A DNA stretch of 52,390 nt from Frankiales bacterium (GTDB lineage Bacteria > Actinomycetota > Actinomycetes > Mycobacteriales > SCTD01). The stretch is taken from the NCBI GenBank assembly GCA_025352005.1, contig JANXUE010000159.1, positions 1-52,390 on the forward strand, given 5' to 3'. This document shows positions 5,981-27,496 of this stretch, piece after piece. Below the pieces are notes generated by a model. That model had not been told where the DNA came from, searched no databases, and saw only the letters and a list, made by a program, of their open reading frames with translations. Within the stretch, counting starts at the first letter, position 1, and each line of letters starts with the position of its first letter. Position numbers and translations under genes: made by a program.

Positions 5981-6069
5981 GTCCGGGTGGCGGAATTGGT
6001 AGACGCGCTAGCTTGAGGTGCTAGTTCTCAGTGATGGGATTGGGGGTTCAAGTCCCCCCTCGGACACCA
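5981..6069 (+). tRNA. tRNA-Leu, anticodon GAG, long variable arm, CCA encoded
   Basis: GTCCGGG...CTCGGAC forms a 7-bp acceptor stem. The anticodon stem is CTAGC/GCTAG with loop TTGAGGT (anticodon GAG). The T arm is GGGGG-TTCAAGT-CCCCC, followed by discriminator A and CCA. Confidence 0.9.
6012..6067 (+). repeat. attL core: 3' part of tRNA-Leu, identical to 27441-27496
   Basis: cttgaggtgctagttctcagtgatgggattgggggttcaagtcccccctcggacac was checked base by base against the second copy. Confidence 0.9.
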
Positions 6070-8570: not shown

Positions 8571-8963
8571 TCATGGCTCGATCGCCTCTCGGTTCAGGAC
8601 ATCTGTGTGGATCGCGACCTCGCGGGGGGCCAGGTCGGTGTCGTCCTGGACCAGCACTACTGGCCGGTGGTGCCCGCATGCGACCGCTGCCTCCGCCTCC
8701 AGAAGCCGCAGGTGTTGGAGAAGTCGCTGCCGGTTGGCGGGGGTGAGGAAGAGCTCGGGCTCGCTCATGGGGTCAGGCTGGTGATCGACCCTGCTCGGGA
8801 CTGTTGCCGGAGCCCGTCCTTCGGGACGTACGGGCCGTGCCGGGTCCGTGACGCGGCGCGCCGGTACCCGCCGACAAGGCGTGTCGCGGCTGTCATTGGG
8901 GCCTTGGGGCTGCGGAGCGTGAGGCCTGGCCGCGCTGTCGTGCTCATCCGAGGACCTAGCCAT
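8571..8963 (-). CDS. Hypothetical protein; possibly only the 65-aa version from ATG 8768
   Basis: ATG 8963 overlaps the stop of the upstream hydrolase gene (ATGGCTAG). The N-terminal half is Pro/Arg-rich. The C-terminal MSEPELFLTPANRQRLLQHLRLLEAEAAVACGHH... looks protein-like. Confidence 0.3.
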   Translation of the reverse strand: MARSSDEHDSAARPHAPQPQGPNDSRDTPCRRVPARRVTDPARPVRPEGRAPATVPSRVDHQPDPMSEPELFLTPANRQRLLQHLRLLEAEAAVACGHHRPVVLVQDDTDLAPREVAIHTDVLNREAIEP

Positions 8964-9993
8964 GGGCGGCGTAGAAGGCGATGGGGTTCACAGGGGTGTC
9001 GTTGGGGCGGGTCTCAAAGTGCAGGTGGGGTCCGGTGCTGTGGCCTTCGTTGCCGCTGTAGGCGATGAGCTGGCCGGGCTGCACGGCTTGGCCGACGGTG
9101 ACGGCCTCACGGCTGAGGTGGCCGTAGACGGTGGTGATGTTGCCGGGGTGCCGGATCTTCACCCACTGCCCGAGGCCGCTGGCGGGGCCGGCGTCGATGA
9201 CGCTGCCGTTGCTGGCGTCGTAGACCGCTGTGCCGATGGGGGCGGCGAAGTCGATCCCGGCGTGCAGCCGACCCCAGCGGTAGCCGAATCCGCTGGTGAT
9301 CTGGGCGCCGTGGATGGGATGGACCCAGCTGCCGGGGGGTCCATCGCCGGGGGCGCTGGCGGCCGGGTCGGCGTAGCGGGCGGACAGGGTCCGGATCCGC
9401 CGCACGTATGCCTGGGTCTTGGGGTAAGGCGCGATGCCGTGGTGTTGCTGGACGGCGCCGAGGCCGGCGTTGTAGGCGGCGAGCGCGAGGTCGATCGGGT
9501 CGCCGGTCAGGCCCTGGTCGGCGGTGACGGCGGCCAGGAGTTTGCACATGAAGGCTGCCTGGCTGGCGATCGCGTCGGCCGGGTTGAACGGATCCCGGAT
9601 GCCGTCGTCGTCGCCGTCGACGCCCTCACTCGCCCAGGTGCCGGGCAGGAATTGCGCGAGTCCTTGGGCGCCGGCGGGGCTGATGGCTTGCGTGTTCCAG
9701 TTGCTCTCGGCGTCGAGCTGGGCGGCGAGCAAGGGTGCAGTGATGCCGGCGCAGGTTCCCGCGGCGCGCAGCACCATCTGCTGGTAGGCGGCTGGGACGG
9801 TGCCGGGGCGAAGGGTGCCGGCCACACCGACCCTGGCGCCAGCGCAAGCGGCGTCGAGCCCGCCGCTGAGCAGGATCAGCAGCATGACGACGAGCAGGAC
9901 CGAGGAGGCGACGACCGCAGTGAGGACCCAGCGCAGCAGTGGCGAGCGCGCCGCGTTGCTGGCCGCTGCTGCGGCGAGCAGTGGCGGCGCCAT
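8956..9993 (-). CDS. Membrane-anchored cell-wall hydrolase: lytic transglycosylase (SLT) domain + M23 peptidase domain
   Basis: N-terminal TM helix (VVASSVLLVVMLLILL). SLT block: LLAAQLDAESNWNTQAISPAGAQGLAQFLPGTW. M23 block: HAGIDFAAPIGTAVYDASNGSV...YGHL...YSGNEGHSTGPHLHFE. This is typical of conjugative and mobilisable elements. Confidence 0.85.
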   Translation of the reverse strand: MAPPLLAAAAASNAARSPLLRWVLTAVVASSVLLVVMLLILLSGGLDAACAGARVGVAGTLRPGTVPAAYQQMVLRAAGTCAGITAPLLAAQLDAESNWNTQAISPAGAQGLAQFLPGTWASEGVDGDDDGIRDPFNPADAIASQAAFMCKLLAAVTADQGLTGDPIDLALAAYNAGLGAVQQHHGIAPYPKTQAYVRRIRTLSARYADPAASAPGDGPPGSWVHPIHGAQITSGFGYRWGRLHAGIDFAAPIGTAVYDASNGSVIDAGPASGLGQWVKIRHPGNITTVYGHLSREAVTVGQAVQPGQLIAYSGNEGHSTGPHLHFETRPNDTPVNPIAFYAAHG

Positions 9994-10756: not shown

Positions 10757-10808
10757 TGAGCAGCGTGGCGAGCACCTGCTGCTGAAGGAGCTCGCCGTGA
10801 GCTTGGCC

Positions 10809-11140: not shown

Positions 11141-12502
11141 TCATCCCGACCGTTTTAAGGAAAAGCCGACATACCCACATTGCCCTTGTTCACAGCAAAG
11201 GTTAGTTTGTCCCCCGAGACCACCGTCGAGGTGCTTCGAGCACGAACGGCACGTCCAGCAGCCAAGGCTGCGGCGCGGTCGGGTCGAGCGCGGTTCTGGC
11301 ATCTGACGAGGCTCCCGGCAGGCAAATCGCGGCCGGCCGGCCCGACCGGGCCGGTCGGCCGCACCGCACCGCACCGCACCAGCGATAGCAGCGCCTACCC
11401 GCACCCGGCGCCGCCCGGGGCTTCTCGGCATCGGCGTCGCACTGATCGCGCTGGCCGCGTTGGCAGCCGCTGACCTGACCCAGGTCGTGGGCAGCACCCT
11501 CCCGGTGGGTGCAGCTCTCGGGTCGGGGGCGAATGCCTTACCAGCCGCACTTGGCACTCCGGCGGACCCGGTGTCCTGCCATCGCCGCTGCAGTTGCGGG
11601 AGGGTCAGGTCGGGTGCGAGTTTGCCGCCCCCAAAGTAGATCGGCTTGCCGCCGTTGTCGTAACGGTCCGGCAGCGCCACTGCGTAGCCGGTGACCTCAC
11701 CGGGGGTGCGTTCGCTCATCCGCGCACGGACCAGCAGCCCGTCGGACCGCAACCGGGCGAAGAACTCGGTCAGGTCACCGGCGCCAGCTGCTGCGGTCCG
11801 TACGTGTGGGCGCAGCACCTCCCGGTCCGGCGCCGCCGGAGCGGGCAGCCCCTCTGCGCTTCTGCGCCGCGCAGTCGCCTGGTGCTTGCGGCTTTCTGCC
11901 CGACTGGTCGACGGTGCCCCAGTGCGGCCGTTGGCGCTGGTCGCGGTGAGTCCGTACTTGCTCTCCAGGAAGCGGCTCGCCTCCATCGAGCGGTACCGGT
12001 CGTTGAACAGCCGGGGGCGCCGGCCGTCCTGGCGCGCCAAGGTCGCCACGATGTGGATGTGATCGGAAGCGTGCCGGACCGCGACCCACCGAACCCCCGT
12101 GTCCTCCACCCGTTTGGCCAGTCCCATCTGGTCCATGTACTCGCGGGCGATGTCGGCCCACTGCTCATCCGACAGGTAGCGGTCGACCAGCTGCCCGGTG
12201 TCCGGGTCCTTCGCCGCAGCAACCGTGAGGTGATACACCGGCTTGTACTTCTTGAGCTGGTCGCGGTCGAGGGCCAGCACCGGTTCGTTGAGCCGGCTGA
12301 CCAGCCCCCGGAAGTCTCGCTGGCCGCCTGCGCACGCCGGCGGCTGCAATCCCTCCAGATCCGCCGTGTCGTCCCAACCGGCGATGACCCTGGCGTCGGC
12401 GTGGGCGGATTCCAGCCCCTTCTCCCCTGCCAGGCCCTCCGTGAACAGGTAGTAGAGCAACCCGCGCACCGAGCCACCGCGCGGCAGTACCTGACCGATC
12501 AC
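11141..12502 (-). CDS. Relaxase/mobilisation nuclease (MobA/VirD2-type domain); 3' third of doubtful integrity
   Basis: GTG start. N-terminus reads IGQVLPRGGSVRGLLYYLFTEG... The histidine triad region reads VAVRHASDHIHIVATL. A later segment reads LTEFFARLRSDGLLVRARMSERTPGEVTGYAVALP. After about residue 330 the translation becomes low-complexity and ends in an AT-rich patch. Confidence 0.75.
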   Translation of the reverse strand: MIGQVLPRGGSVRGLLYYLFTEGLAGEKGLESAHADARVIAGWDDTADLEGLQPPACAGGQRDFRGLVSRLNEPVLALDRDQLKKYKPVYHLTVAAAKDPDTGQLVDRYLSDEQWADIAREYMDQMGLAKRVEDTGVRWVAVRHASDHIHIVATLARQDGRRPRLFNDRYRSMEASRFLESKYGLTATSANGRTGAPSTSRAESRKHQATARRRSAEGLPAPAAPDREVLRPHVRTAAAGAGDLTEFFARLRSDGLLVRARMSERTPGEVTGYAVALPDRYDNGGKPIYFGGGKLAPDLTLPQLQRRWQDTGSAGVPSAAGKAFAPDPRAAPTGRVLPTTWVRSAAANAASAISATPMPRSPGRRRVRVGAAIAGAVRCGAADRPGRAGRPRFACREPRQMPEPRSTRPRRSLGCWTCRSCSKHLDGGLGGQTNLCCEQGQCGYVGFSLKRSG

Positions 12503-12521
12503 CTCAACCCGCCGCTGGCGC

Positions 12522-13028
12522 TTAGGCCAGCCGGCGCGCGAGCGCTGCTGCGGCCGTGTCGACCCGGGCCACCGCTCGGTCGCCGCCGGCGATCGACTGC
12601 TCGAGCCACACCGGCGCGTCCGCCCCGCTGTTGAGTACAGCAGCGGCCTGGTTGACGTTGACCCCGTACCGGCGCAGCGCCAGCCGCGCCTGGATCAGCT
12701 CGGCCAGCAGCTCGCGGTCCTCACGGTCCGACCAGGAAACCACCGCCTGCCGGACTTCGGTTGCACCGTCCTGAACCACATCGCCGCGCGCCTCCAAAAC
12801 CCGCCGCGCCATCCGAAGCGCCGCCGTCGCCACGTAGCTGCTGGGCCGAAGCCCCGCCACCTCCGCAGCCCGCTCCACGGTGTCCCGCTCCTCCTCGCTG
12901 TAAAGCACCTTCACCACATGACCCCGAGCCGGAAACAGGTGCGGGCGATGCCGCCCCAGCAGCACCGCCGCTTCGACCTCCAGCGGAAGCGCCAACCCAT
13001 CTGGCCTCACCACCTGCTGCTCAGACAT
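12522..13028 (-). CDS. mobC: MobC-family mobilisation (relaxosome accessory) protein
   Basis: ...VKVLYSEEERDTVERAAEVAGLRPSSYVATAAL... is RHH-like, and ...LIQARLALRRYGVNVNQAAAVLN... is the MobC signature (LRRxGxNxNQxA). The gene lies 19 nt upstream of the relaxase. Confidence 0.8.
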   Translation of the reverse strand: MSEQQVVRPDGLALPLEVEAAVLLGRHRPHLFPARGHVVKVLYSEEERDTVERAAEVAGLRPSSYVATAALRMARRVLEARGDVVQDGATEVRQAVVSWSDREDRELLAELIQARLALRRYGVNVNQAAAVLNSGADAPVWLEQSIAGGDRAVARVDTAAAALARRLA

Positions 13029-13435: not shown

Positions 13436-13795
13436 CTACCGCTCAGGCCACAGCTCGCTGGGCTCGAAGTACTCGCCCTCGTCCTCGACCTGAACGCAGA
13501 CACCAGCGACGACGTAGCCCTCGTAGGAGGCGCCCGTCACGACGTAGAACCGGACCTCGTCGTCCGGGAGCAGACCAGTCGCGTCGACGATCCGTCGCTG
13601 CTGTTCTTCGTCGGCCTCCGTGACCGTCAAGCCGGGCAGCAAGGTCGCAAGATTGAGCACTTTGACGTTCTGGAAAAGGACGTCAACCCGCGTTGTGCAC
13701 CCCTCACCCTTCGTGCTGCGCAAGAGCAGGCGGCGCATGCCCACCGTGTAGGCCCAGACTTGGAAGACCCGGGCCGGCTGATCGACGAGCGTCAT
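13436..13795 (-). CDS. Hypothetical cytoplasmic protein (119 aa); candidate immunity partner of the upstream secreted protein
   Basis: MTLVDQPARVFQVWAYTVGMRRLLLRSTKGEGCTTRVDVLFQNVKVLNL...YEGYVVAGVCVQVEDEGEYFEPSELW. The composition is clean coding and acidic. Its ATG overlaps the upstream stop (ATGA at 13792-13795). Confidence 0.6.
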   Translation of the reverse strand: MTLVDQPARVFQVWAYTVGMRRLLLRSTKGEGCTTRVDVLFQNVKVLNLATLLPGLTVTEADEEQQRRIVDATGLLPDDEVRFYVVTGASYEGYVVAGVCVQVEDEGEYFEPSELWPER

Positions 13796-14442
13796 GGCGC
13801 CCATGGGTTCTCCACTGGCACGCCCCCACGAACGAATGTCGCGGAGCCCAGACGGTCGGCGTCGTACAGGAGTGACATCTCCCAGTCGGTGTACCCGCCG
13901 ATGCCCGCTGCTCCCCGCTGAGCTGCGCCTGCGATCTGCGAGTAAGTCGAAGAGCCACTCAGACCATCGAGGCTGACGGTGAACTTCGTAGAAGAATCAC
14001 CCACAGCACGCTGAAGCGTCCCCATCCATTCCGGGTCGCTGAGCAAGGTTCGACCACCGACCTTTGCCGCAGTCGCCTCGAGGCCATGGGCCTCCAAACC
14101 AAGCACGATGTGGTCGCCAGCGCCGCCTGCTGCTTCTGCGGCACCAGAGGAAACCGGCTTGTGGCGAACGACCCAGATTTCCCAAGGCGCCCGGGCCGCG
14201 CTTGACCTGCTGGAACGATCTTGTGGGTTCGTTGCGCCCGGCGTGTCTGACAACTGTTGAGTGGCGCGGTCGTAAACGTGACTGGCCTTACCAAAGGTCG
14301 TCGTAGGTGCAGCCAACGCTGGGCCAGCTCCTACGGTTGAAGGCCCCATTTGCGCGAAGAAGACGAGCAGACCGGACATGACCGCCATCACCCAGGGCGT
14401 GACCCAGGGCAGCCATCGACCACGGGCCGAGATGTGGGTCAT
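13792..14442 (-). CDS. Secreted/membrane-anchored protein (216 aa) with an unassigned ~110-aa C-terminal domain; candidate toxin
   Basis: From ATG 14442: MTHISARGRWLPWVTPWVMAVMSGLLVFFAQMGPSTVGAGPALAAP is signal/TM-like. A low-complexity linker follows. The C-terminal domain reads DHIVLGLEAHGLEATAAKVGGRTLLSDPEWMGTLQ...KFTVSLDGLSG...GGYTDWEMSLLYD... ATGA overlaps occur at both ends. Confidence 0.6.
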   Translation of the reverse strand: MTHISARGRWLPWVTPWVMAVMSGLLVFFAQMGPSTVGAGPALAAPTTTFGKASHVYDRATQQLSDTPGATNPQDRSSRSSAARAPWEIWVVRHKPVSSGAAEAAGGAGDHIVLGLEAHGLEATAAKVGGRTLLSDPEWMGTLQRAVGDSSTKFTVSLDGLSGSSTYSQIAGAAQRGAAGIGGYTDWEMSLLYDADRLGSATFVRGGVPVENPWAP

Positions 14443-14684
14443 CCCTGCTCTGACTCCACGAGCAAGTTCGACGGCAACACCTTGCTCGCGCCGAGAATTT
14501 CGATTCCCACTATTCCGTCGGTGGCGTCGAGACCAAGGATGACAGCCGAGCCTTGCAACCCGACGTCGCAAAACTTCGTTCTAGCGACCGTGCGTCCTGG
14601 CCCGAGTCCCACGACGTAGATGTAGGCGGCATCGGCCTCTGGGTCGTACTGGATCTCAAGGCTTCGACTTACCATCCTGACCAC
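14439..14684 (-). CDS. DUF2283-family small protein
   Basis: ...SLEIQYDPEADAAYIYVVGLGPGRTVARTKFCDVGLQGSAVILGLDATDGIVGIEILGASKVLP matches the DUF2283 pattern (YDxEADALYI...GxlvGIEIL.AS). The start may be ATG 14675. The stop overlaps the next ATG (14439-14442). Confidence 0.65.
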   Translation of the reverse strand: MVRMVSRSLEIQYDPEADAAYIYVVGLGPGRTVARTKFCDVGLQGSAVILGLDATDGIVGIEILGASKVLPSNLLVESEQG

Positions 14685-15373
14685 CCGTTGCTCCTCGCCA
14701 TTCCAGCCACGTCACTTAGGGGCCATCCCCGGTGCGCCGTTACGATCGCCCCGTCCGCGTTCTGAATGATCAGGTTGTAGCTGTCCTTCCCAGCTTGGGC
14801 GACGTAGGCGAATGCGCCGTCGGCCTGTTCGTATTTGCTTCCGGCTCGAATGATCGCCACGTCAATATCATCGAATCCAGCCTCGCCGATGCGGATCGCC
14901 CCGTGGGCAGTGGTGTTCCCCGAGAAGCCGCCGAGCGAGCCGCCACGATCAGGATTCAGCGTACGGTCCATCCTCGCGCGTGCAAGGCGCCCGAACCCAC
15001 CTGCACCGTCTTCTGCGGCAACGCGAGACAGGTGAACAACGGTTGATTGGCGCAACAAGCCCACGGGAGTCACCGACGAGCCTGGAGTAGGCGTCTTTGC
15101 CGAGGCGTGTTCCGCGTGCTCGTCGAAGGTGTACTCGCCGGCCGTCGTAGCGGCAGATGGCGAATCGCAAAGGACCACCTTCAGCCGCGTCGGCGGCCGG
15201 CCCGGCGGATGCTCTGCTCCGATGTGCTCTGCGACCGAGAGCGTCGTCGAGTTCCCGGCCTCAACGCAAGATCCAGCGACGGGAGAGGTAGCCGCGGATG
15301 CCATCCCGGTAGGCAAGAGCACCGCCAGGACGGTCGCAACGATCGCGACGAGGAGCAGCCGCAAGCGCGCCAT
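14669..15373 (-). CDS. Sec-signal protein (234 aa) with C-terminal DUF4258-like (RelE/BECR-type) domain; candidate secreted RNase toxin
   Basis: From ATG 15373: MARLRLLLVAIVATVLAVLLPTGMASA is a signal peptide. The C-terminus TAHGAIRIGEAGFDDIDVAIIRAGSKYEQADGAFAYVAQAGKDSYNLIIQNADGAIVTAHRG resembles the DUF4258 pattern H-A-x-x-R-x-x-E-R-G-I...G...VV...I-I-T-x-Y. The assignment is by eye only. Confidence 0.55.
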   Translation of the reverse strand: MARLRLLLVAIVATVLAVLLPTGMASAATSPVAGSCVEAGNSTTLSVAEHIGAEHPPGRPPTRLKVVLCDSPSAATTAGEYTFDEHAEHASAKTPTPGSSVTPVGLLRQSTVVHLSRVAAEDGAGGFGRLARARMDRTLNPDRGGSLGGFSGNTTAHGAIRIGEAGFDDIDVAIIRAGSKYEQADGAFAYVAQAGKDSYNLIIQNADGAIVTAHRGWPLSDVAGMARSNGWSGW

Positions 15374-15402
15374 CGCGACCCTTGAGCCCCTCACACCGTG
15401 AA

Positions 15403-15696
15403 TCATTGCGACGCGTTGCCGTTTGGAGGATCCGCCCATGGGTCGCCGAGTAGGTACGGGACGGATACGTCCAGCACGTCGCCAAGCGCCTCCAGCGCCT
15501 CGCGCTGCGTCGGGGTGACCTCGATGTCGTACTCATAGACCTGCGTGCAAAGCGTCTCAAGAGCGATCTGCAGCTCGCCGGCCGCGATGAGGACCCTGAC
15601 CTGCTCAACATCCGCCAGGGGCAAGCCGGCGGCCGCGTCTACCGCTTGCTGGAGCATGTCCGCGGCGACGGCGCGGTCCACCGACTGGCCGCTCAT
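15403..15696 (-). CDS. MafI-like immunity protein for the Rhs C-terminal toxin
   Basis: 97 aa: ...[47 protein letters not shown]... resembles the MafI-family core (E-W/L-x-x-A-L-E-x-L-C-x-x-L-Y-E-x-x-I/V). Its ATG overlaps the Rhs stop (ATGA at 15693-15696). Confidence 0.6.
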
Positions 15697-18600
15697 GGGA
15701 GCGGGAATCCGGTGATGATGCCTTCGCCGCCGGGTTCGACGATGACGCGCATTGGAACACCGTCGCGAACGCCGTCGACGTAGAACCGGACTGGGGCACC
15801 GTTCTTTGTGAAATCAGCCCCCAGCTTCCCGGTCTGCTGAACCCAAGTCAGGCTCGGGTCGGTGGCGATGTCGGAGACGTTATGCATGATCTGGCCCGGC
15901 GACCAGCTACTCGGGAAGAGCGTGTTCCCAGCCTCACCAGGCGGCATGTGTCCGTCGAGGATGTGCGAGGTTCGCGACTTGCTTGCAAGGTTGACGAGGC
16001 CACTATCCGCTTCTGCGGCGCTGTGCGCGTCGCTCGGCTGCAGTGCTCTAAGTGTGGCTCGTTCGGCATCTTCGGCCCCTTGGAGTGCGCGCTCTCCACG
16101 TTTGAAGCCTTGGAAGGCGTCAATAGCATCGCCCATCAGTGACCACAGGCGCTTCGCGAGGCGGGCGCCAGCCTTCCAGCGCCATGGTGCTCCGTACTTC
16201 TCGATGATCTTCCCTACCGCGCCGCCAACTGCGGCAAGCAGGACGTTGACGGCGGTCTCAGCGCATCCCCCGATGTTGCCCTGCAGGCAGCTAATGCCCG
16301 CGCTGACGCCGGTGAGGTCGGCGACGATCTTGACGATGCCCTTGACGTGCTTGATGACTTGCGACTTGGCCTCGTCGCGGTCGTGGCGGGCTGCCTCAAC
16401 GACGGCGTGCGCGTTGTCGCTGCTGACTTTCTTGGAGACAGCCTTCTCCATGGTCGCGCTCTGGACCTTGCCGTAGTACTGGTCCTCCGTGCGCAGTCCC
16501 GAGGCGTCGCTGAAGGTGATGGGGCTGTTGTTGGCGTAGCTGTACGCGGCGAGTTGCTGGGGGTCGGTCGGGTCGATGATGCGGTCGACGCTGATGAACC
16601 GTCCCTGGGTGGGGTCGTACTCGCGTGCTCCGAGCCGGGTCAGGCCGGTGCTGGGGTCGTTGGTGCCGCCGACGAACCCCTTGTCCCCTGCTGGCCAGGA
16701 TGCTGCGGAGCCACGGGCTCCCCCGAAGGGCTGGATGTAGCGCTTGGTGACAGCGTTCGTGGCGTTGTTGATCGACACCAGGGGCGTGCCGTTTGGGTCG
16801 TTCGCCAGGGTGCTGACACCGCCACCGCCGCTGTTGCGCTGGGCGACGATGTGGCCACCGAACTCGTAGTAGCGCTGGGCACTCAATGACCCGCTTGCCT
16901 TGTCCAGCGTCAGTTCGGTGCCGTCGAGGTACAGCGTGGTGTTGGTGGGGGTGCGCCGCAGCAGCCGTTCACCGTTGGCGTCGTTGAGGTAGCTGGAGGT
17001 GCCGGCGCTGGTGGTGACGGTGCTGAGGGTGTCCTCGGTGTTCCAGGTGAGGGTCTGGGTGGGCTGGCCGGCGAGTGCCCGCTGCGTGGTGTTGCCCGCG
17101 TTGTCGTACTGGAACGCGTCGGTCGTGATTCCGGCTAGGCCGGTGCTGGTGACGTTGGCGACGGCGTGCGGCCGTGCTTGGCCGGCAGGGGGGTAGGCGT
17201 AGGTGCGGGTGGTGTCCCCCGCGCTGCCATGGTTGACCTCGCTGGTGCGGTTGCCTAGGACGTCGTACCCGAAGGACTGCCAGTAGGGGGAAGGTCCGCC
17301 CAGGGTGATGCTGCTTGGCGCTGCGTTGCAGTCGGTGGTGGTGGGGGTCCAGGCTTGGGTGAGGCGCCTGTAGTTGTCGTACTGATAGCACTGCGTGTCG
17401 ACGGCACCGGGGGTGTTGTCGCCCATGCTGGTGACGTTGCCGGCGGGGTCGTAGGTGAGGTTGTAGTCCGCCGCGCCGGGCAGGTTCTGCCGGTCTACTT
17501 TGATCTCGTTGAGGCGGCGGGTGGCCTGGTCGTAGAAGAAGGTCTGGTAGTTGCTGTAGTTGACCGTGTTGCCCATGGTCAGCTGGGTCGTCTCACCGTA
17601 CGGGCTGTAGGTGGCCCCGGCGACGTAACTGCCGACGCCTGCGAGGGTCTTGGGCTGTCCGAGAGTGTCGTACCCGTAGGTCAGGGTCTCAGCCGGCAGG
17701 CCGGTGACGGCAGGCAGTCCCATTCGTTGGACGCTGCCGTCGGCCCAGTACAACAGGTTGGTTGTGTACGTCCCTGCCAGTGCGCCTTCGATGGCGGGGA
17801 TCGTCAGGCTGTAGCCGGTGGGCTTGTAGTCGACGTCGTAGCCATTGACGGTCGTGGTGTAGTCGGCTCCGTTGACGCTGCGCGTTGCGGTGTCGACCTG
17901 GCCTAGGGCCTTGCTGTCGTAGGTCCACTTGGCTGTGATGGGTGCGTTGCTGTTCGGGCCGTCGTACTGCGTGGTGCGGCGGCCGATGACGTCGTAGGCC
18001 CACGTCTGGCTCTGCGAGTTTGCGTTGGTGCTGGTAACGAGCTGGTCGGCGTTGTCGTAGACGCTGCTGCTAACGCCCTTGTCGGGGTCGTTGGCCTGGA
18101 TGCGCCGCCCGAGTCGGTCGTAGGTGTAGGTCCAGATGTTGTTCTGCGGGTCCTTGACGGTCGCGAGCTGGTCGGCGGGCGTGTAGCTGTACCGGGTGCT
18201 GTCGAACGTCCCCGTCGGGGTCGCGCCGGCGTAGACACGCTTCTCGCTCAGCCGTCCCCGCACGTCGGTGTAGGTGCTGCTCGCGGTGCCTCCAGGTGGG
18301 GGGGTCACGGCGGTGACGTCACCGTCGTAGCTGATGCTGCTGCGCCACTTCTCGACAGCGTTGCTGTAGAAGATGTTCAGCGTGGGCCGGCCTACGCCGT
18401 CGTAGTTGGTGACCGTCTGGGTCGGGATGGCGCCGTCACCGGTGGGCTGGAAGATGGTGCCGGCTGGGGCTCCAGTGGTGTAGTAGGGACCGTTCTGCTT
18501 GGTGACGAGCCCACGTTCGTCGTAGATGGTGTCGGTGATGACCCGGTTGCCGGTGCCGTCCAGCGCGGTCGATTGGGTCTGGCGGGGGCGTAGGAGACCA

Positions 18601-21600
18601 TCGAGGATGCTGATGTTGCGGGTGTAGGTGCCGTCGTTGCGGACCTCGTTTGTCGTGACGTACGTCGGGGCGCTCTGGCTCAGTGAATAAGCGAACGTGG
18701 CCGTTGCGGTCGCGCCCCCAGCCTTGCTCCGGTCGGGCATCCACGCCGCCGTGATCCGGCCGAGGCCGTCGTAGGTGAGCTCGGTGCGGCGGTTGTTCAG
18801 GTCAAGCTGGCTGTCGGGGGTGCCCCAGGCGGCGTTGAGGTTGGTCGTGCTGGTGAAGGCTTTGCCGGCGGGGTCCTGGATCTCCTTGACCTGGGTGACG
18901 GGTCCACCGGCGGCGGGGGTGTAGCTCGTAGTCGTGAGCCGGTTGAGGCCGTCGTAGCTAGCGGTAGTGCGGCCGTTGCCGTCGTAGATGTACTGCTCAC
19001 GGGTGACGTAGACGGGCCCGGTCGTCCAGTCGCTCATCTCGTCCTTGCGGACGAGCAGACCTCGGGTCGGGGTCGCGCCGAACGTGGTGGCGTCGTCGAA
19101 GTAGCTCCGACTGTCGGTGATGATGTCGGCGGGTCGCGTCGGCGTGACGTTGCAGGCCACCGACACGGTCTCGGTGTGGCTGATGAGCGAGACGAGATAG
19201 CTGCTGGTGTTGCGCGTGTAGTCGTACCGGCTGCACCTGTCGTCGGTGCTCAGGCTGGTGTCGCCGAGGTCTTCGACCTGGGTCGGGTCGCCGTAGGTGT
19301 CGTCGTAGGTGGTTCGGGTCTCGGTGTTGCGGAATCCTCCGGTACTGACGGCCTCGCGGCTGCGGACGTTCGCGGTCCGGAGCATCAGGGCTTGAACGCT
19401 TCCGTTCGTGGCGGTCGCGGCACTGATCCACGGGTCGTTCACGGTGCTGTTGACCTCGGGGCCGCCGACGCCGTTCAGCGTGATCATCTCGCGTTCGAAC
19501 CCGGCGAGGCGATCGCTGTCAGCCAGCACTTCGCCGCGGGAGTCGGTGATGCTCACCGATCTGGTCGTCCCGCCAGGCAGGGTGTCACCGTCCATGCCAC
19601 GCATGAACAGGTGCTGGGTCGCCAGTCTCGGTCCGCCGGGGTTTCCAACGATCTCGGTGACCTGGCTGTAACCCCTGGCCTGGCCGTACGTCCGGAACTT
19701 GGCCGGAGTGAGCTCGTTGTTGTCGTAGTGCCAAGCGAGGGTGTCGGCGTAGGCGTAGGTCGTCTGCTTGGTGGCGACCAACGTGGTCTGGTCGTAGTCG
19801 GTGACGAAGTCCACCGGGTACTTGTGGAAGTAGTTGAGCGTCGGCGTCACCGTGCCATCGGGGGCGTAGTAGACCGGGAAGCAACGCTTGTTGTCCGTTG
19901 ACGGGCTCGCGGGGATGTTGCTGCTGCTGCACTCAGCGGCCCTGTAGCTGATGCCGGTGACTCCACCGGTCTCACTGGTGATCTTGTTCAGGCGGTACTT
20001 GATCATGGCGGGACCCAGAGCCGGGTCGACTCGGTTGGGCAGTTGGGTGTAGCCGAAAGTCACGGGCGGCAGGGCGACGGCTGTTCCCACGTTGCCCGTA
20101 TGAGTGATCTTCGTGAGCCGCAGGGCTTTGCTGGTGCCGTCACCCGGGTCGGGGAAGTCCTGCGTGAGCGTGTAGGTGTCGACGGGGGTGTAGGCCGACC
20201 CGCTGTAGACCTGGGTCTGGACTTGGGTGACTCGCTTGCGGCTGAAGAAGGTGGGAGTGGTGCGGTTGGCGCAAGTGGACTCGGCTGAGGTGCAGACGCG
20301 ATCGACCGGGACATCGGGCCAGTAGGCAGCGTTGGCGGTGGTGAACTGCGCGTCGCTGCAGGTGATGGTCCCGCTGGGCAGGCAACGTTCAGCGACGGTG
20401 AAGGCGACGTGCTGCGGGGCGGTCGTGGTGGCTTCGCCGCCAGCGCGTTCACCGAAGTCGATGCCCGTCAGGTAACCGCCGCGGTAGTAGGACGCCTTGG
20501 TGGTGTTGTTGTTCTGACCGTAGTAGTTGATCTCTCCGGTGTACTGGTAGGTCATAGTGTTGCCGTGCGGGTCCACGACGTAGCTGAGGTTCCAGCGCCA
20601 CGGCTGCAGGCAGAAGGAGGAGGCGTACGCGGCGTTGTAGCAGCGCTCTGCACTCTGGTTGCCACTGACGGGTACGGTCCAGATGCTGCTGTTGGTGGCC
20701 GTGTCCCCGCTGTAACGGGTGTTCAGACCGAAGTAGTAACGGGTCCCGTCACTTGTCGTAAGAACCCACGAGGCGGTGTCGGCACCGGTGGCCGCCGGGG
20801 CGTGCGTCATGCGGCTGCCGTCGTCGTCCTTCAGGCGCCACAACCCTGTGGTCGCATCATGGACGAGCTCTCCGCTGTGTCCGGGCAGGCTCAGCGTGGC
20901 GTTGTCGTTCTTCCAGCACAGGTCCCCGGTGCTCAGGCTGGCGGTGTTCCCGCCTGCCTTGTCGTCGTTGCACGAGACGTAACGACGCTCGATGAACCCG
21001 CTGCTGAGGTCGTGGCCTTCACCCACCCAGCTGGGCTGCGCGTTCGTGGAGGCAACCCGCCCGTCAACGCTCTGCGATGAGTAGTCCAGTGACAGGCTCG
21101 GAGCCGGTCCCCCTTGGGTGGGTGGCACGCGCAGCGGGTAGCTCCACTGGAAGTCACCGGTGTTGAGCCCCACCGTCCACGTCGACGAAGGAGCCAAACT
21201 CGTGGCGGCGTAGCTGCCGCTACTTCCCGACGCGCCAGCCGCGGCTGCCAAGACGACCGCCCCGGAAAGGGTCCGGGGCATCTGAGCGATCAGGACCTGG
21301 TTGCTGGTGTCGTTACGCGTCGCTACCGGTGTTGTCGTCTGACACCTAAGCACCGCTGGCGTGCTCAGGAAGCAGGCCGGGAGCGCGACCAGCGACAGTC
21401 GCTGCGCGTAGTCACCTCCGAACCCCCCTGCCCAGCTCCGATAGCTCACACTGATCCGAGGGCGCTTGGTCAGCTTCGTCCTGTCCGACAGGGTGAAGAC
21501 GAGACCACGCATGATGCGTGCCTGGGGACTGGCCTGGCCGAGCAGCCGCGCGCTCAGCCCTGTCGCGTCAGATCCGCGGCCCACCGAGACCGGGTGGGCG

Positions 21601-21857
21601 GCTGTCGGCGCGCCTCCAGTCAGGGCCCAGCTCGCAGCCGCCGGCATCTCGACATGCCCCGGCACGGGCTCGGCACCTGCAGGCGCAGGTCGGGGTTGCG
21701 AAACACGCAGTGTGCTGCCGGGAACTACTCGTTCCCGTTTCACGACTGGCTTGCGAAATGATGCTCTGGAGTTGTCCGCGACGGCAGGCGTGCCGTAGGC
21801 CATCACCGCCAAAGCGGTTGCCTGGGCGATCAGAGCGACAGCTGCGCGTCGACGCAT
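15693..21857 (-). CDS. RHS repeat-associated core domain polymorphic toxin (2054 aa): signal peptide, SpvB/TcB-like N-region, YD repeats, EndoU-type C-terminal nuclease
   Basis: Signal: [28 protein letters not shown]. SpvB-like block: [33 protein letters not shown]. Many YD/YxYDxxGR repeats are present ([27 protein letters not shown]). Core end: [15 protein letters not shown]...[17 protein letters not shown] (about 16494-16508). C-terminal end: [31 protein letters not shown]...[17 protein letters not shown]. Confidence 0.9.
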
Positions 21858-21899
21858 GGGGTTCCTTCGAAGAGGGCCTGGTTGGAGGGTGGCCGACGG

Positions 21900-24620
21900 C
21901 TAACCGGCGAGGACGTTCAGGGTCGTGTCGTCGAAGGAACCCTGAAACAGCCGCACGTCGTCGACATAGCCCGGGAAGCGTTGGGCGCCGCCGGACGCGG
22001 CACCGATCCGGAACTCGCCAGCGCTGCTGTAGTTCACCCGTCCTGCGGGCGCGATGGCGAGCTTGCCAACGTTCATTCCTGCTACTGCCAGCGAGAGGGT
22101 CGGGCTGTCGTCGGCCTCGTACTGGGCGCACACGCTCTCCCAGCCGACGCCAGACACCAGGGTGCTCGTAACCCGTGCGACAGGTCCCGTCGCGCTGTTG
22201 GTTGTGTGCAGGGAGATCTGATAACTCCCGGCCCCGCCGCTGACGGCGTACTCCAGTTGCCATGCGTACGTGGCCGAGGTGCTTTGGTGGGCGACGACGT
22301 ACGTTCCGTCAGCAAGGCCGTTCATGGCCTGCACGTAGGCGCAGACTGTGAAGTTGTTGCTTACCGAGAGCAATGCCGTTGTTGGTACCGCCGACAAAGA
22401 GCCGCCGGCCGTCAGGTCTACGGCTCGGTCCCCGAGCGTTGCTGAGTTGTTGGGATCGTAGAGCCGTCCAACAGTCAAGGGGACAGTCGTTGTCGAACTG
22501 ACAGCGACCGAGCCGACGGTCCCGGAATCGGGTGACGTGTAGGGACTTGCGCCGTCCACTGAATCCAGCTTGTACCGGTGCGTGGAGTCCGCGACGGTCC
22601 CGTAAACGTTGAAGCGGTAGACCGTCTGTGGGCTGACGTTGCCAGCAAGGTCCTTGGAGGAAACCTTCAAGTAGTGCGGGCCGAAACTGGGCGGCGCGAA
22701 GGTGGCGTTCGCTGCGGAACCCGAGGCTGTCACGGGGATAGTCGGGGTATCCACGTCAAAGCCGTAAATGAAGCTCACCGCCCCGGTGGCGCTGAACGCG
22801 AACGTGCCAGCGATGCCGGATCCACCATGCGAGGCACCGTCAGATGGATAAGCGATGGAACTGACGCTTGGGGAAGGAGGCGCGCTCGTGTCAACAGTGA
22901 ACTCGCACGTCGCCGACGCCGCAGACGTGGTGTAGCTGTCGATGGCAACTGCATAGAAGCTGTACGTAGTTCCGTTGACCACTTGGACGGCGGGCGACAC
23001 ATGTGTCCCTGGCGACTGTGCGCTGGCCGTTGCATACGATGAGTAGGTAGTCGACTGCGACCCCTTGTAGAACCAGCGGATCGCGTCCATGTCGTCGCTG
23101 GAGTCCGCTGACGTTGCCTGGAAGACCACTGAATTCGCGCTGATAACGGGCCGGGTCGATCCGGTCACGCAGGTCTTGCTCGGGGTGCTGAGCCTGTTGC
23201 CGCTGATGGTCGGCTTCACGTCGAAGGTTACGCTCAGCGTCGCATCGTACCTGAAGCGCTTCCAGTTGAGCGGATCGGTCTCGCTTGCCTGCAGACTCAG
23301 AGTGATCGAGGAAGCGCTGGAGTCTGCTGCCGCTTGCAATCCCGCTGTCGCCGTAAAGGCCACGTGAGGAGTGGTACCTCCGCAGGTGTCGCCGCCGGCG
23401 AAGGTTTGCACGTCGAGCGCCGTCAGGTTGGCGGGCTTGCTGTTCCAGTTGGTACTGCTGGTGAAGCTGTTCGTTCGGTACAGCGTGACAGCACGCGCGG
23501 TGCAGTAGGCCGAGTGCGTGTTGTAGGCGAGAAATTTAGCGGAAGTGATCTTCGTCCCGCGCCACGTCGTGGAGCCATTGATGCTGGTGAAGGTGCTCGG
23601 GAAAGTCCAGTAGAGGCGCTTCGTGCTCTGACCGCTGTAATTCTGATAGCCAACGCCCTGATCGTTAGCCCAGTTGTAGTAGCTAACGTCCGGGTAGTAG
23701 CCGTCCACCATGAGGCGTGCACTCTGGCCTGGTCCGACCGTGGGATCGATGTACACGGGGTATCGAGTCGTCACCGCGTCGAGCAACGTCGCGTTGGGCA
23801 CGAGGTTCAGCACGCTATCGGCGAGCGTCATGCCGACAGCACGGACAAGGTCACCCTCGACCGGACCCCGCAGTCGGTCGACAGGTCCCGGTACCGGCAC
23901 AGCGCGGGCGTCGGCGGCTCCGGCGCTTGAATCCCACATCGCGGGCGGCGGGACACTCAACAGCTCATTCTTGGCGTTGTTGACAAACCCGATCCGGCCC
24001 GTTGCGTCCTGCTTGGCAGTGAGGCCGCTGGCCTGCATCCCCAGCGACAGGGCGCGCAGCTGCGGGTTCTTGCCAGCTTCGAGCGTCTTGACGACGACGA
24101 CCTCCCCAATGCCGTCACTCTTTGCAGTGACCTGGAGGTCGACGCCAGGCAAGACGTCGGCGAAGGTCGCCGTATCACCGGTCAGTTGCGGAGTGGGAAG
24201 GGCCGTCGGCCAGGACATAGCCACCGATCCGCGATCGCCTGGCACACCGATGCCGTATACGAGCCTGTCCCCGCCACCGCCGATGCGTTCAGCGAGCAAC
24301 GTCGCGCCCGGCTCGACCGTGCCATCGCTGCTGCGGCGCAGAGTCGTGTCGATGGCGGTCCACCCACCGTTGCGCTCAACGCGCGTCGGCACCGCCGAGG
24401 CATCCACCGTCGTCGTGCCGTCGGGGTTCGACCAAACCGTCGAGTACGGAGTGCGTGCTGACAGCACCTCAACCCGCTGACCCGTGCTGCTGGCCTGTGC
24501 AGCTGGGTCACCCGTCGCGGTGGTGCTGCCCGCCGCATGGGTCTGCGATGGCATTAACGACAACGTTACGAGGCTCAGCGTAGACACAAAAAGAGCCGAC
24601 CTGCGACGGCGAGCAGCCAT
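21900..24620 (-). CDS. Secreted 906-aa protein with central DNRLRE/CBM-like region and C-terminal LamG (concanavalin-A-like lectin) domain; Rhs-associated
   Basis: Signal: MAARRRRSALFVSTLSLVTLSLMPSQTHAAG. Central region: ...VTLYRTNSFTSSTNWNSKPANLTAL... The C-terminus ...FRIGAASGGAQRFPGYVDDVRLFQGSFDD is the classic LamG ending. A 42-nt gap containing GAAGGAA precedes the Rhs ATG. Confidence 0.8.
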   Translation of the reverse strand: MAARRRRSALFVSTLSLVTLSLMPSQTHAAGSTTATGDPAAQASSTGQRVEVLSARTPYSTVWSNPDGTTTVDASAVPTRVERNGGWTAIDTTLRRSSDGTVEPGATLLAERIGGGGDRLVYGIGVPGDRGSVAMSWPTALPTPQLTGDTATFADVLPGVDLQVTAKSDGIGEVVVVKTLEAGKNPQLRALSLGMQASGLTAKQDATGRIGFVNNAKNELLSVPPPAMWDSSAGAADARAVPVPGPVDRLRGPVEGDLVRAVGMTLADSVLNLVPNATLLDAVTTRYPVYIDPTVGPGQSARLMVDGYYPDVSYYNWANDQGVGYQNYSGQSTKRLYWTFPSTFTSINGSTTWRGTKITSAKFLAYNTHSAYCTARAVTLYRTNSFTSSTNWNSKPANLTALDVQTFAGGDTCGGTTPHVAFTATAGLQAAADSSASSITLSLQASETDPLNWKRFRYDATLSVTFDVKPTISGNRLSTPSKTCVTGSTRPVISANSVVFQATSADSSDDMDAIRWFYKGSQSTTYSSYATASAQSPGTHVSPAVQVVNGTTYSFYAVAIDSYTTSAASATCEFTVDTSAPPSPSVSSIAYPSDGASHGGSGIAGTFAFSATGAVSFIYGFDVDTPTIPVTASGSAANATFAPPSFGPHYLKVSSKDLAGNVSPQTVYRFNVYGTVADSTHRYKLDSVDGASPYTSPDSGTVGSVAVSSTTTVPLTVGRLYDPNNSATLGDRAVDLTAGGSLSAVPTTALLSVSNNFTVCAYVQAMNGLADGTYVVAHQSTSATYAWQLEYAVSGGAGSYQISLHTTNSATGPVARVTSTLVSGVGWESVCAQYEADDSPTLSLAVAGMNVGKLAIAPAGRVNYSSAGEFRIGAASGGAQRFPGYVDDVRLFQGSFDDTTLNVLAG

Positions 24621-25260: not shown

Positions 25261-26963
25261 CTAGGACCCCGAGTCCGTAACGGTTGACGTGCTGCCGGGC
25301 GGCCACGGCGGTGGCGCCTTTGCCGGATGTTGCGTCAGAGGCCTGGCGAAGGTGTGGCGCCATGGTCGTGAAATTGCTTGAGGCCGGTCGACGGGGCAGC
25401 CCGTTTCGTGTCGCGGGGTGACCCCAGCACCTTTAGTTGGTGGCCATCTGGGTGGTTGTCCATCCGGACCCTGCGAGTTTGCGGAAGTTGTGGCGGGCCA
25501 GGTGGAAGGTCCACTCGATGTCGGCTTTGACCTGGCCGCGGAGCCGTAGTTGATGGCCGCCTTGGGCGACGTTGATCTGACCGAAGACCGGTTCCACGAT
25601 CGCCTTGCGCCTGGCGTAGTCGGCCTTGCCCTTCTTGGTCCGTAGTTTGCGGCTCATCCGCTGTTTGGGGGTCAAGGCCGCCGGGATCTGCCCACGTGGC
25701 GCCGCTGGTGGTCTCTCGCCGTGCTTGAGCCGCCCGGTCGCCAGCAGTGGGTCGATCCCCGCAGCGGTGACCGCCTCGACGTTGTCGGCGGAGAAGTACC
25801 CAGCATCGGCCAGTAGCGTGCGGGGCGTGCCGTCGATGCCGGCCGCGGCCAACGAAGACGCCAGCTCGGTGAGCATGTCCGGCAACGCCGAGCAGTCCGC
25901 ACCGGACTGCCGCAGCGACGCGGCGAGCACCACCTGACTCTTCTCATCCACCACCGCCTGACCGTTGAAGCAGTAGTGGAACGACCCGTCCGAGGTCTTC
26001 ATGATCCGCGCGTCCGGGTCGGTGAACGAGCGTTGCGCCCGGTCGGGGACGACCGCGACAGCTTCGGCCGCGTCACCAGCCTCGATGACCTGAGCCGGGT
26101 CCTGACCCCTGTTCGGCTGCCGCCTGTTCAGCCTGCGCACGGGCCTTCGCGGCGTGCTCGGCCTCCAGGGCGGCCTTGGCCTTGCGGATCGCGGCCAGCC
26201 GGCCTTCCCGGCGGGCCAGCTCAACCGGCTGTTCATCACCGCGCCAGTCGGTGCCGTAAGCGGCATCCTCGGCAGCGTCCAATCGCTCCGCGTCGGCCAG
26301 CAACGCATCGACCTCATCTGCGAGTTCGCTTTCAGCTCGCACCATCCGGTCGTAGCTCATCGCCCGATGCCGGCTCGCGGCCGCCCGCACCTTCGTCCCA
26401 TCCAGGGCGACCCGGCCAAGCGACACCAAACCGGCCTGCGCCCACAACGTCAACGACTGGGTGAACAACGCCTTCAGAGCGGCCCCGTGCCGGGTCCGGA
26501 ACCGGCTGATCGCCACGAAGTCCGGTGCCACCTGAGCGGTCAGGAACCGGTACGCGATGTCGTCGTGGCAGCGACGCTCCAACGCCCGCGAGGAGGTGAT
26601 CCCATGGGAGTAGCCATAGATCAGAATCTTCAACGTCAGCCGCGGGTCATACGGCGGCGCACCCCGCACCTCGGTGTAGTCGGCGTAAACCGCGGACAGG
26701 TCCAACCCGTGCTCAACCAGATCATCGACCCAACGCGCCGGATAACCGGCCGCCAACCAGTCCCGAAGATCAGGAGCCAACAGCATCGGCTGGTCCTGGT
26801 CATAACGCCGAAACGTCCTATCCACAGCCGATTTCGCCTGTCCCGACCCCGCTGAGACCGGCTTCACGACCATCAACACCGATTGTTGGGCGACCTGAGG
26901 CTTCGACATACCCCATTCACCTGTAACCACAGGCCTTTACGTGTTACCGACACGGGGTCCTAG
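25261..26963 (-). mobile_element. IS1182-family insertion sequence (~1.7 kb)
   Basis: Terminal inverted repeats are CTAGGACCCCGAGTCCGTAAC (25261-25281) and the reverse complement of 26943-26963, CTAGGACCCCGTGTCGGTAAC, matching at 19 of 21 positions. The transposase ORFs lie inside. Confidence 0.8.
25433..26909 (-). pseudogene. IS1182-family transposase, split into two overlapping frames (frameshift between 26073 and 26317)
   Basis: The N-terminal frame (to 26073) reads MSKPQVAQQ...YGYSHGITSSRALERRCHDDIAYRFL... (DUF772-like). The C-terminal frame reads ...FTDPDARIMKTSDGSFHYCFNGQAVVD...ADAGYFSADNV...VEPVFGQI... (DDE). Family members normally carry one ORF. Confidence 0.75.
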
Positions 26964-27398: not shown

Positions 27399-27440
27399 CC
27401 CGTAACACATAACCGCAGGTCAGAGGGCATGCCCGGCTAC

Positions 27441-27496
27441 CTTGAGGTGCTAGTTCTCAGTGATGGGATTGGGGGTTCAAGTCCCCCCTCGGACAC
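27441..27496 (+). repeat. attR core: displaced 3' fragment of tRNA-Leu (no 5' half)
   Basis: Identical to 6012-6067. The upstream sequence (gcccggctac) cannot form the acceptor or D arms. Confidence 0.9.

Follow-up and report, generated by a model that had tools for sequence, protein, structure and literature searches.

Does the seven-gene cluster that fills half of a mobile island in a Frankiales bacterium encode one secreted weapon with accessory genes, or several toxins that are exported separately, each beside an immunity protein of its own? Far less is understood about the secreted protein weapons of Gram-positive bacteria, and of actinobacteria especially, than about those of Gram-negative bacteria. 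The cluster lies at positions 13436–24620 of contig JANXUE010000159.1 (assembly GCA_025352005.1), and the whole stretch of 52,390 nt that was analyzed is called the window below. A first-pass annotation made from the sequence had interpreted the cluster as encoding three effectors, exported independently of one another and accompanied by cognate-looking partners. That reading is supported by the present analysis, which indicates with high probability that the locus is one operon composed of three polymorphic toxin–immunity modules and carried as the cargo of a mobilisable island integrated at a tRNA-Leu gene. Families and domains of the 37 open reading frames (ORFs) covered in the window were assigned with Pfam and NCBIfam, the tRNA gene was found with ARAGORN, and the toxin tips were modeled with AF2 (AlphaFold2). 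Contigs with relatives are designated L001–L009, L077, L090, and L091, and relative proteins are given P-numbers such as P0022.

Organization of the operon

The cluster consists of seven co-directional genes on the minus strand, each with its ORF present at the coordinates given in Table 1, in the order LamG, Rhs-EndoU, MafI, toxin 1, DUF2283, toxin 2, and a gene for a 119-aa protein. It takes up 11.2 kb (52%) of the 21.5 kb that lie between the direct repeats bounding the island, so the earlier statement that it fills half of the element stands, and Pfam and NCBIfam matches bear out the gene order together with the LamG, Rhs, EndoU, MafI, and DUF2283 identities proposed at the same time. Genes 2–7 all overlap, and the 42-nt gap between the LamG and Rhs genes is the only separation in the cluster. 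The three ATGA junctions originally noticed (15693–15696, 14439–14442, and 13792–13795) are exact in position, and with a further one at 15403–15406, formed by the MafI stop and the toxin-1 start, the count becomes four; in addition, the toxin-1 stop and the DUF2283 start share a 7-nt ATGGTAA overlap (14669–14675). Judged by these overlaps, genes 2–7 are translationally coupled.

Inspection by eye and hydropathy analysis (Kyte-Doolittle, 12-residue windows) placed a hydrophobic N-terminal segment of the export type in the LamG protein, the Rhs protein, toxin 1, and toxin 2. The hydropathy maxima are 3.1 for toxin 1 (scored as P0039) and 2.5 for toxin 2 (scored as P0001), and basic residues precede them. 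The three immunity candidates are acidic (pI 4.05–4.5) and have no signal segment. No type VI or type VII secretion system (T6SS or T7SS) gene and no member of the LXG or WXG families was found among the 37 ORFs scanned, as had been noted before. The window has a GC content of 62–72%, in keeping with a high-GC actinobacterium, and this content is a little lower in the toxin region than in its flanks.

Two putative small toxins and their conserved partners

Toxin 1 combines a signal-type N-terminus, a linker of ~90 aa that ends in VAAE (15011–15022), and a 118-aa C-terminal domain, or tip (14672–15025), with the signature T-x-H-G-A...Q-x-D-G...T...G-W. Its close relatives, of ~200 aa, begin with a hydrophobic segment and continue through a variable linker into a conserved C-terminal domain of ~115 aa. 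Among 1.84 billion representative proteins, a profile search recovered 247 relatives of the tip. It is C-terminal in all of the best 150 of these 247 matches, in which its position was read, and the same type of tip also occurs on Rhs proteins (1597–1932 aa) and on a PT-HINT protein. Because of this C-terminal placement, which extends to Rhs and PT-HINT proteins, the domain can be regarded as a genuine polymorphic-toxin tip.

Four lines of evidence, none of them decisive, suggest that the toxin-1 tip is possibly an RNase of the BECR type with a relationship to DUF4258. Among the toxin-1 relatives, the subthreshold Pfam match seen most often is DUF4258 (8/40, best E 0.0013). The AF2 model has an alpha-alpha-beta4-alpha core with a predicted local distance difference test score (pLDDT) of 80–90, compared with 67.8 for the whole model, and gave weak fold matches to colicin D, the CdiA-CT 8ey4, and BrnT (E 0.7–1.4, template modeling (TM) score 0.35–0.48). 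In L091, a tip just under the DUF4258 cutoff sits on the toxin-2 N-terminus and is followed by a DUF2283 gene. PDB sequence searches with toxin-1 tip profiles returned nothing meaningful. The DUF4258-like end that the first-pass annotation had proposed for this protein has weak support at the family level and is not matched in the window protein itself. Filing the window domain as DUF4258 was tried and dropped because the hhalign match was confined to a short motif, T-x-H-x-x-x-R-M-x-x-R-G.

The gene that follows toxin 1 encodes a DUF2283 protein. In all three other loci with toxin-1 relatives (L001–L003), a DUF2283 gene comes next with the same 7-nt overlap, at 52–73% identity, and the DUF2283 protein is a candidate for the immunity protein of toxin 1.

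Breaks inside toxin-1 tips were seen in two places. The BamD/TPR-like lipoprotein P0047 (16 member sequences, from ENA) ends with 33 residues that are identical to the toxin-1 end, preceded by five near-identical residues, and L090 switches abruptly inside the toxin-1 tip at window position 14762. Either chimeric metagenome assembly or genuine recombination within the tip would account for these breaks.

Toxin 2 is built in a similar manner from a hydrophobic export segment, a linker of ~55 aa ending in GAAE (14134–14145), and a C-terminal domain (13795–14151) that is common to 38 homologues. The first-pass annotation had left this tip unassigned, and that statement can now be replaced: 24 of the 26 family tips match PF15531 (Ntox27) at E ≤ 1, with a best value of 1.1e-5, and P0030 was already annotated with PF15531, so that by profile comparison the tip is a divergent Ntox27-like domain. 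Tips of this type follow Rhs cores in P0022, P0025, and P0035 and signal-peptide linkers in most other proteins, and one is carried by the LamG-type Rhs protein of Nonomuraea wenchangensis (L077). The AF2 model of the tip (pLDDT 88.8) is a three-layer alpha/beta domain, whose best PDB fold matches are SEFIR/TIR domains (IL-17R/ACT1, TIR-1, SPARTA, and MyD88; E 0.02–0.4, best TM score 0.5). It is conceivable that the tip is nucleotide- or NAD-directed, the SEFIR/TIR resemblance of the model being a lead only. Within the Ntox27-like family, a W-E pair is invariant and a D-H pair nearly so.

The last gene of the operon encodes an acidic 119-aa protein for which no Pfam, NCBIfam, or PDB match was obtained. 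A relative of this protein is encoded immediately downstream of the Ntox27-like tip in all five other contexts, with 41–62% identity in L004, L005, L006-8, and L009 and with an E value of 3e-23 after the Rhs gene of L077; two of the five contexts are Rhs-fused tips. The protein is, therefore by synteny, a candidate for the immunity protein of the Ntox27-like tip. Such pairing in 3/3 (DUF2283) and 5/5 (119-aa family) other contexts agrees with the original view that the effectors have cognate-looking small partners.

Exchange of tips at a conserved junction

The relatives of both small toxins, whose source genera include Nocardioides and Nostocoides, have similar N-terminal regions composed of a signal segment and one of two linker types, T-R-V-G-A...A-G-Q-R-x-G or Y-x-Y-D...E-R-G-P-P. 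The linkers are 55–90 aa long, of low complexity, little conserved beyond short motifs, and probably disordered, and they always end in V-A-[A/T]-[E/N/K/D] right before the tip; a hydrophobic N-terminus is present in most of the full-length relatives.

Exchange of tips at this junction is seen directly in several loci. The metagenomic contigs L090 and L091 have 99.5% and 99.0% DNA identity to window positions 14762–14133 and 14516–14120, respectively; in both, the identity halts at the toxin-2 G-A-A-E codons, after which L090 and L091 each continue with a tip and a partner gene unlike those of the window. In L007, two toxin genes stand in tandem; the first 89 aa of their products are the same, through V-A-A-E-A-G, and are followed by a toxin-1-type tip in one and an Ntox27-like tip in the other. 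L002 has at least eight consecutive toxin–partner pairs; seven of the tips were scanned, and none of them gave a significant Pfam match. This array (7248–15897) has VAAN junctions and partners that include DUF7957 and DUF7674, and one of its pairs is duplicated exactly in tandem (13481–14430 and 14427–15376).

An integrase gene is present in all eight of the small-toxin loci that have several kilobases of flank (L001–L008). L002–L008 have a common backbone that comprises a divergent helix-turn-helix gene, a Zn-ribbon/Toprim primase-like protein of ~850–1050 aa, and a tyrosine integrase, and L001 has the integrase only; as an element family, the L002–L008 backbone differs from the relaxase-bearing island of the window. 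No description of mini toxins with a VAA junction was found in the open-access literature, which is weak evidence.

The LamG–Rhs module

The first gene of the operon encodes a protein in which ~700 conserved N-terminal amino acids are followed by a C-terminal LamG jelly-roll. Its 133 homologues, of ~1100 aa and annotated as "LamG-like jellyroll" or "DNRLRE domain", come from Nonomuraea, Micromonospora, Streptomyces, Cellulomonas, and others, and some of them carry an FG-GAP, ricin, or B-lectin module instead of the C-terminal LamG domain. The family occupies at least 592 loci in the genomes scanned, and synteny was counted in the best 80 of them, each from a different species. A Rhs homologue (>1000 bits, full-length) is encoded directly downstream on the same strand in 61 of the 80 loci, upstream in three, and divergently in seven, and Rhs lies within 10 kb of the LamG gene in 71/80; the other nine have no match or a weak match only, and three of these nine contigs terminate near the LamG match. 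Alignments of the window Rhs protein with 70 actinobacterial Rhs homologues run from the N-terminus to residues ~1786–1800, at the end of the core. Since the alignments end where the polymorphic tip starts, LamG–Rhs can be considered a conserved two-gene module, and the LamG gene is, as judged from synteny, a conserved partner of this actinobacterial Rhs class rather than an incidental neighbor. The variable, lectin-like C-terminal end suggests that the LamG protein is a surface-binding or targeting partner. RHS Pfam domains are listed for one family member, P0163, which may be a fusion.

Homology between the LamG and Rhs proteins themselves was rejected on direct comparison. ORF clustering in the 80 loci, which was swamped by antisense shadow ORFs, yielded no third conserved neighbor of the pair, and no paper that describes this pairing was found in the open-access literature, again weak evidence. 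The public call of the LamG gene (P0048, NCBI source) has 772 aa, compared with 906 aa for the ORF that has the signal-type start; the public start is probably placed too far downstream because homologue alignments reach residues 1–45 of the longer ORF, which also contains the signal-type segment.

The Rhs protein has a signal-type N-terminus, YD repeats, a core, a pre-toxin segment of ~170 aa, and an EndoU tip. The repeats are matched by PF05593 (E 2.3e-8), TIGR01643 (E 3.6e-12), and YD_repeat_2x (NCBIfam), and PDB matches are to Rhs and teneurin. The Rhs_assc_core model TIGR03696 scores 53.4 bits over residues 1709–1788 (window 16494–16733), and the core ends in ...SDASGL, a D-x-x-G-L motif. 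The tip (15699–15956) matches positions 63–128 of the EndoU profile PF14436 with E 9.8e-10 and 39.3 bits (cutoff 25.3), and an H-I-L-D-G-H motif lies just upstream of the match. Between the core motif and the EndoU tip, two Gly/Ala-rich hydrophobic helices (~16200–16340, Rhs residues 1840–1886) were noticed, which may be a membrane-entry segment of the released tip. The next gene product, with no Pfam match, scores 42.2 bits with the MafI model NF033691 (cutoff 31), and its gene has an ATGA overlap at each end, including the one with the Rhs stop; the protein is a candidate for the cognate immunity protein of the EndoU tip.

Alternative explanations

The small pairs could be imagined as ordinary type II toxin–antitoxin systems of the DUF4258/DUF2283 kind, which would act in the cytoplasm as addiction modules that stabilize the island and would not be exported as weapons. 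DUF4258 has been catalogued as a toxin–antitoxin toxin of the RelE/ParE superfamily (PMC11980606), the pairs are located on a mobile element beside relaxase genes, and the partners are small and acidic and overlap the toxin genes, but this explanation is very improbable because the toxins have strongly hydrophobic export-type N-termini and 55–90-aa linkers, as do most of the full-length relatives, because the toxin gene precedes that of the partner, and because the tips also occupy the C-termini of Rhs and PT-HINT proteins and are swapped behind a constant N-terminus. These features favor secreted polymorphic toxins over toxin–antitoxin modules. The least probable of the alternatives we considered is that, as in classical Rhs orphan arrays, the small genes serve as a store of silent or orphan tips that can recombine into the Rhs gene upstream. 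Both genes begin with a start codon of their own, situated in an ATGA overlap, and encode a signal-type N-terminus, the Rhs core model TIGR03696 matches the large protein only, the junction is VAAE and not DPxGL, the N-terminus remains 99% identical in DNA while the tip differs (L090/L091), and similar gene arrays occur without a nearby Rhs gene (L002, L004, and L005), in spite of the position directly downstream of a Rhs–immunity pair and the presence of the same tips on Rhs proteins elsewhere. The first-pass annotation had likewise distinguished the small genes from Rhs orphan tips on account of their own export signals and the lack of a Rhs core.

If the small toxins are indeed effectors, they might still be non-autonomous, i.e., cargo or co-effectors that require the LamG–Rhs proteins of the same operon for delivery. 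We regard this dependence as quite unlikely. It would suit the co-direction of all seven genes, the overlaps of genes 2–7, the small acidic toxins without an evident entry module, and the Rhs-type genes near the relatives in L003 and L006, but the pairs in L001, L002, L004, and L005 have no LamG or Rhs gene within their flanks (≤8 kb on each side), and in the 80 LamG–Rhs loci neither a further conserved neighbor emerged from the clustering nor a small-toxin-type gene from profile searches. It is also unlikely that the small toxins act in the manner of ABP/S8-PTS, as diffusible pro-toxins that an unlinked secreted protease would cut near VAA[E/N/K] to free an entry-competent fragment. A common architecture, with a Sec signal and a short N-terminal module ahead of the polymorphic tip and with a cytoplasmic immunity protein, the reported occurrence of ABP systems in Actinomycetota (PMC9424270; PMC13460014), and a sharply conserved junction motif that could be a processing site are set against an S8 protease that is absent from the operon, from the 37 window ORFs scanned, and from the neighbors of the relatives, against a short, low-complexity linker that is not BetaH-sized, and against toxin domains that are acidic or neutral and not cationic. 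The readings as type II toxin–antitoxin modules, as Rhs orphan cassettes, and as members of the ABP systems were each rejected on such feature tests.

The preferred explanation, three exported toxin–immunity modules in one operon, has difficulties of its own, and the following points weigh against it. Toxicity, export, and protection are argued from sequence and synteny, the signal peptides from inspection and hydropathy, the role of the LamG protein from synteny, and the single transcript from the gene overlaps; a scan for promoters and terminators gave no usable result in this high-GC DNA. The toxin-1 tip of the window has no Pfam match even at E ≤ 10, either alone or together with its close family, hhalign compared this family with the DUF4258-type tip at 6.7% probability over 21 columns, and the best fold matches have E values of 0.4–1.4, for a model with a pLDDT of 67.8. 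The toxin-2 tip of the window scores 14.8 bits with PF15531, below the cutoff of 24, and its fold matches are weak (best E 0.02). Moreover, entry of the small toxins that Gram-positive bacteria export via Sec has, to our knowledge, a single established model, which depends on cationic domains and protease activation, and this model is not obviously applicable because the tips are neutral to acidic, with a pI of 6.1 for toxin 1 and 4.6 for toxin 2, which leaves delivery unexplained. It is chiefly this matter of passage across the target envelope that lifts the locus above the routine.

The island and its surroundings

The toxin operon is cargo of an island bounded by 61-nt direct repeats of the tRNA-Leu 3' end (Table 1). 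An exact 23-mer of the att repeat is confined to the two island ends in the whole window, and no third att copy was found in the window. The tRNA 3'-end repeats, integrase, relaxase, NikA-like protein, and wall hydrolase are the features by which an integrative mobilisable element is recognized; the earlier description as a tRNA-integrated mobilisable element thus holds, and the island is predicted to be capable of excision and transfer. The NikA/MobC-like protein scores 25.7 bits with PF21983 (cutoff 27) and 22.4 bits with PF08681 TacA1 (cutoff 21). M23/SLT wall hydrolases are usual components of transfer modules. The longest ORF in the region of the wall hydrolase gene, at 8962–10419 on the plus strand (485 aa), has no family match and overlaps the M23/SLT ORF; the minus-strand ORF was taken as the gene because of its GC content at third codon positions, 0.89, and a choice by ORF length would miscall it.

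Table 1 Features of the island and the toxin operon in the window
Feature	Position	Strand	Evidence or remark
tRNA-Leu(GAG)	5981..6069	+	ARAGORN; 3' 61 nt (6007-6067) = attL
Island tyrosine integrase	6283..7578	+	PF00589, E 4.7e-14
M23 peptidase / SLT lytic transglycosylase (wall hydrolase)	8956..9993	-	PF01551 E 3.7e-31, PF01464 E 6.5e-14
MobA/VirD2-type relaxase	11141..12502	-	PF03432, E 1.5e-9
NikA/MobC-like relaxase accessory	12522..13028	-	PF21983 E 1.2e-5, PF08681 TacA1 E 1.2e-4
Acidic, predicted cytoplasmic protein, 119 aa, pI 4.5	13436..13795	-	New family
Putative mini polymorphic toxin 2, 216 aa	13792..14442	-	Ntox27-like tip
DUF2283 protein, 78 aa, pI 4.3	14439..14675	-	PF10049 E 3.2e-10
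Putative mini polymorphic toxin 1	14669..15406	-	245 aa from ATGA start, or 234 aa from ATG 15373
MafI-family immunity protein, 97 aa, pI 4.05	15403..15696	-	NCBIfam NF033691
Rhs polymorphic toxin, 2054 aa	15693..21857	-	Pfam, NCBIfam, and PDB matches
LamG-family protein, predicted secreted, 906 aa	21900..24620	-	PF13385 (Laminin_G_3) E 6.6e-12
Insertion sequence, split transposase, between toxin operon and attR	25433..26930	-	DUF772 + DDE_Tnp_1
attR, 61-nt copy of tRNA-Leu 3' end	27436..27496	+	60/61 identical to attL

The insertion sequence transposase is encoded by two overlapping ORFs in different frames (DUF772, 26073–26930; DDE_Tnp_1, 25433–26317), and the split could reflect a programmed frameshift or a pseudogene. 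Just inside both island ends is a 23-nt motif, CTGCCCTAGTGG(G/C)TGCCCTAGTC, at 6204–6238 (in tandem, left end) and 27377–27399, and a 37-nt repeat is located at 27039–27075 and 27391–27427; these repeats may be arm-type binding sites of the integrase. A second tyrosine integrase gene (27668–29095) begins right past attR, and a second element appears to stand in tandem at the same tRNA-Leu site. Farther on are an IS21-like pair (Mu-type transposase, 30824–32494, and IstB, 32059–33261) and two neighboring tyrosine recombinases (38883–40124 and 40121–40957) followed by a Mutator transposase (40964–41998). The second integrase at attR and the recombinases and transposases beyond it mark the tRNA-Leu gene as an insertion hot spot.

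Proposed mechanism and significance

On the basis of these observations, the locus might work as follows. Module 1 would be a two-component secreted Rhs system, in which the LamG protein binds to or targets a surface, the Rhs cage carries the EndoU RNase tip, and cytoplasmic MafI neutralizes the tip in the producer. In modules 2 and 3, proteins consisting of a signal peptide, a short linker, and a toxin domain of ~115 aa would be exported via Sec; the toxin-1 domain would probably act as a BECR-type RNase related to DUF4258, and the toxin-2 tip would act as an Ntox27-like alpha/beta domain. A small acidic cytoplasmic partner, DUF2283 for toxin 1 and the 119-aa family for toxin 2, would protect the producer from each of them. 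Recombination at the VAA[E/N/K] junction would swap the tip and the immunity gene together and so diversify the arsenal. By entering and killing neighbors that lack the island, the three toxins would favor retention of the island in the population.

A broader proposal joins two ideas: that the mini toxins are an undescribed, mainly actinobacterial class of Sec-exported toxins with a signal peptide and a short disordered linker, in which tip and immunity gene are swapped at a V-A-A-[E/N/K] recombination or processing junction, which are borne in arrays on integrative elements and which, having acidic tips that in many cases match no Pfam family, must enter their targets by neither the ABP nor the Rhs/contact-dependent inhibition (CDI) route, and that the LamG protein is the obligatory, variable-lectin targeting subunit of a widespread two-component actinobacterial Rhs toxin. 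We advance the two together only tentatively, as a conjunction that is somewhat more likely to fail than to hold.

Whatever the fate of that proposal, one compact operon offers three distinct toxin–immunity pairs as testable leads. The 119-aa family supplies a candidate immunity protein for Ntox27, for which none is listed, and DUF2283 would take on the role of immunity to an exported toxin, beyond that of an antitoxin in toxin–antitoxin systems. The V-A-A-[E/N/K] motif provides a defined junction for tip exchange between near-identical elements, and the mini-toxin arrays are a source of uncatalogued toxin domains. The pairing of LamG and Rhs, given at least 592 loci of the LamG family, may account for target finding by the Sec-exported Rhs toxins of Actinobacteria. 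These findings extend the polymorphic-toxin framework and do not overturn current concepts.

Comparison with known systems

The Rhs-EndoU-MafI part of the operon is of an already-known type, to which the VAA-junction mini toxins, their partner families, the observed cassette swap, and the LamG–Rhs pairing are added. Rhs/YD-repeat toxins of the Sec or TcdB/TcaC type, such as WapA (PMC3482391), resemble the window Rhs protein in the signal-type N-terminus, the YD shell, the D-x-x-G-L core end, the variable tip, and the downstream immunity gene. The window protein differs from them in the LamG partner that is conserved upstream in most of the actinobacterial genomes sampled, and it has no T6SS or T7SS context. 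An EndoU RNase tip combined with MafI-family immunity is likewise found in the MafB–MafI system of Neisseria and in EndoU CdiA-CT. MafB proteins are polymorphic toxins with a Sec signal and a constant, lineage-specific N-terminus (PMC3482391), whereas the window EndoU domain rides on a Rhs scaffold in an actinobacterium, with neither a MafB-N (DUF1020) domain nor a MafA gene.

For the mini toxins, the closest experimentally studied analogue is ABP/S8-PTS (AbpT–AbpP–AbpI; PMC9424270, PMC13460014), if the analogy is drawn from architecture: both are small Sec-type toxins of Gram-positive bacteria with exchangeable tips and cytoplasmic immunity, and many of the ABP tips are BECR RNases (PMC9424270, PMC13460014). 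The mini toxins differ in that they have no adjacent S8 protease, are not cationic (pI 4.6–6.1), and are arrayed on integrative elements. Ahead of the toxin domain they have a short linker, marked by Y-x-Y-D and V-A-A-[E/N/K] motifs, in which no BetaH-sized domain is visible, no search with a BetaH model having been made.

At the level of the tips, toxin 1 is similar to the DUF4258 (PF14076) BECR toxins, which are also used as a CdiA tip (PMC11630599), in the T-x-H-[AG]-x-x-R-[LM]-x-x-R-G motif, the DUF2283 partner, and perhaps the alpha-alpha-beta4 topology predicted by the AF2 model. The toxin-1 domain is distinguished from them by scores below every Pfam threshold, by an extra conserved C-terminal helix that ends in N-Y-G-W, and by predicted export in place of a cytoplasmic location. 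Ntox27 (PF15531) was described as an alpha+beta tip of Actinobacteria on Sec-type, RHS, and HINT architectures, with no immunity family given (Zhang et al. 2012, PMC3482391). The toxin-2 family agrees with this description in the matches of most of its tips to the model at E ≤ 1, its occurrence in Actinobacteria, and its Rhs and signal-peptide scaffolds, while the window copy belongs to a divergent subfamily below the cutoff and is accompanied by the conserved 119-aa partner.

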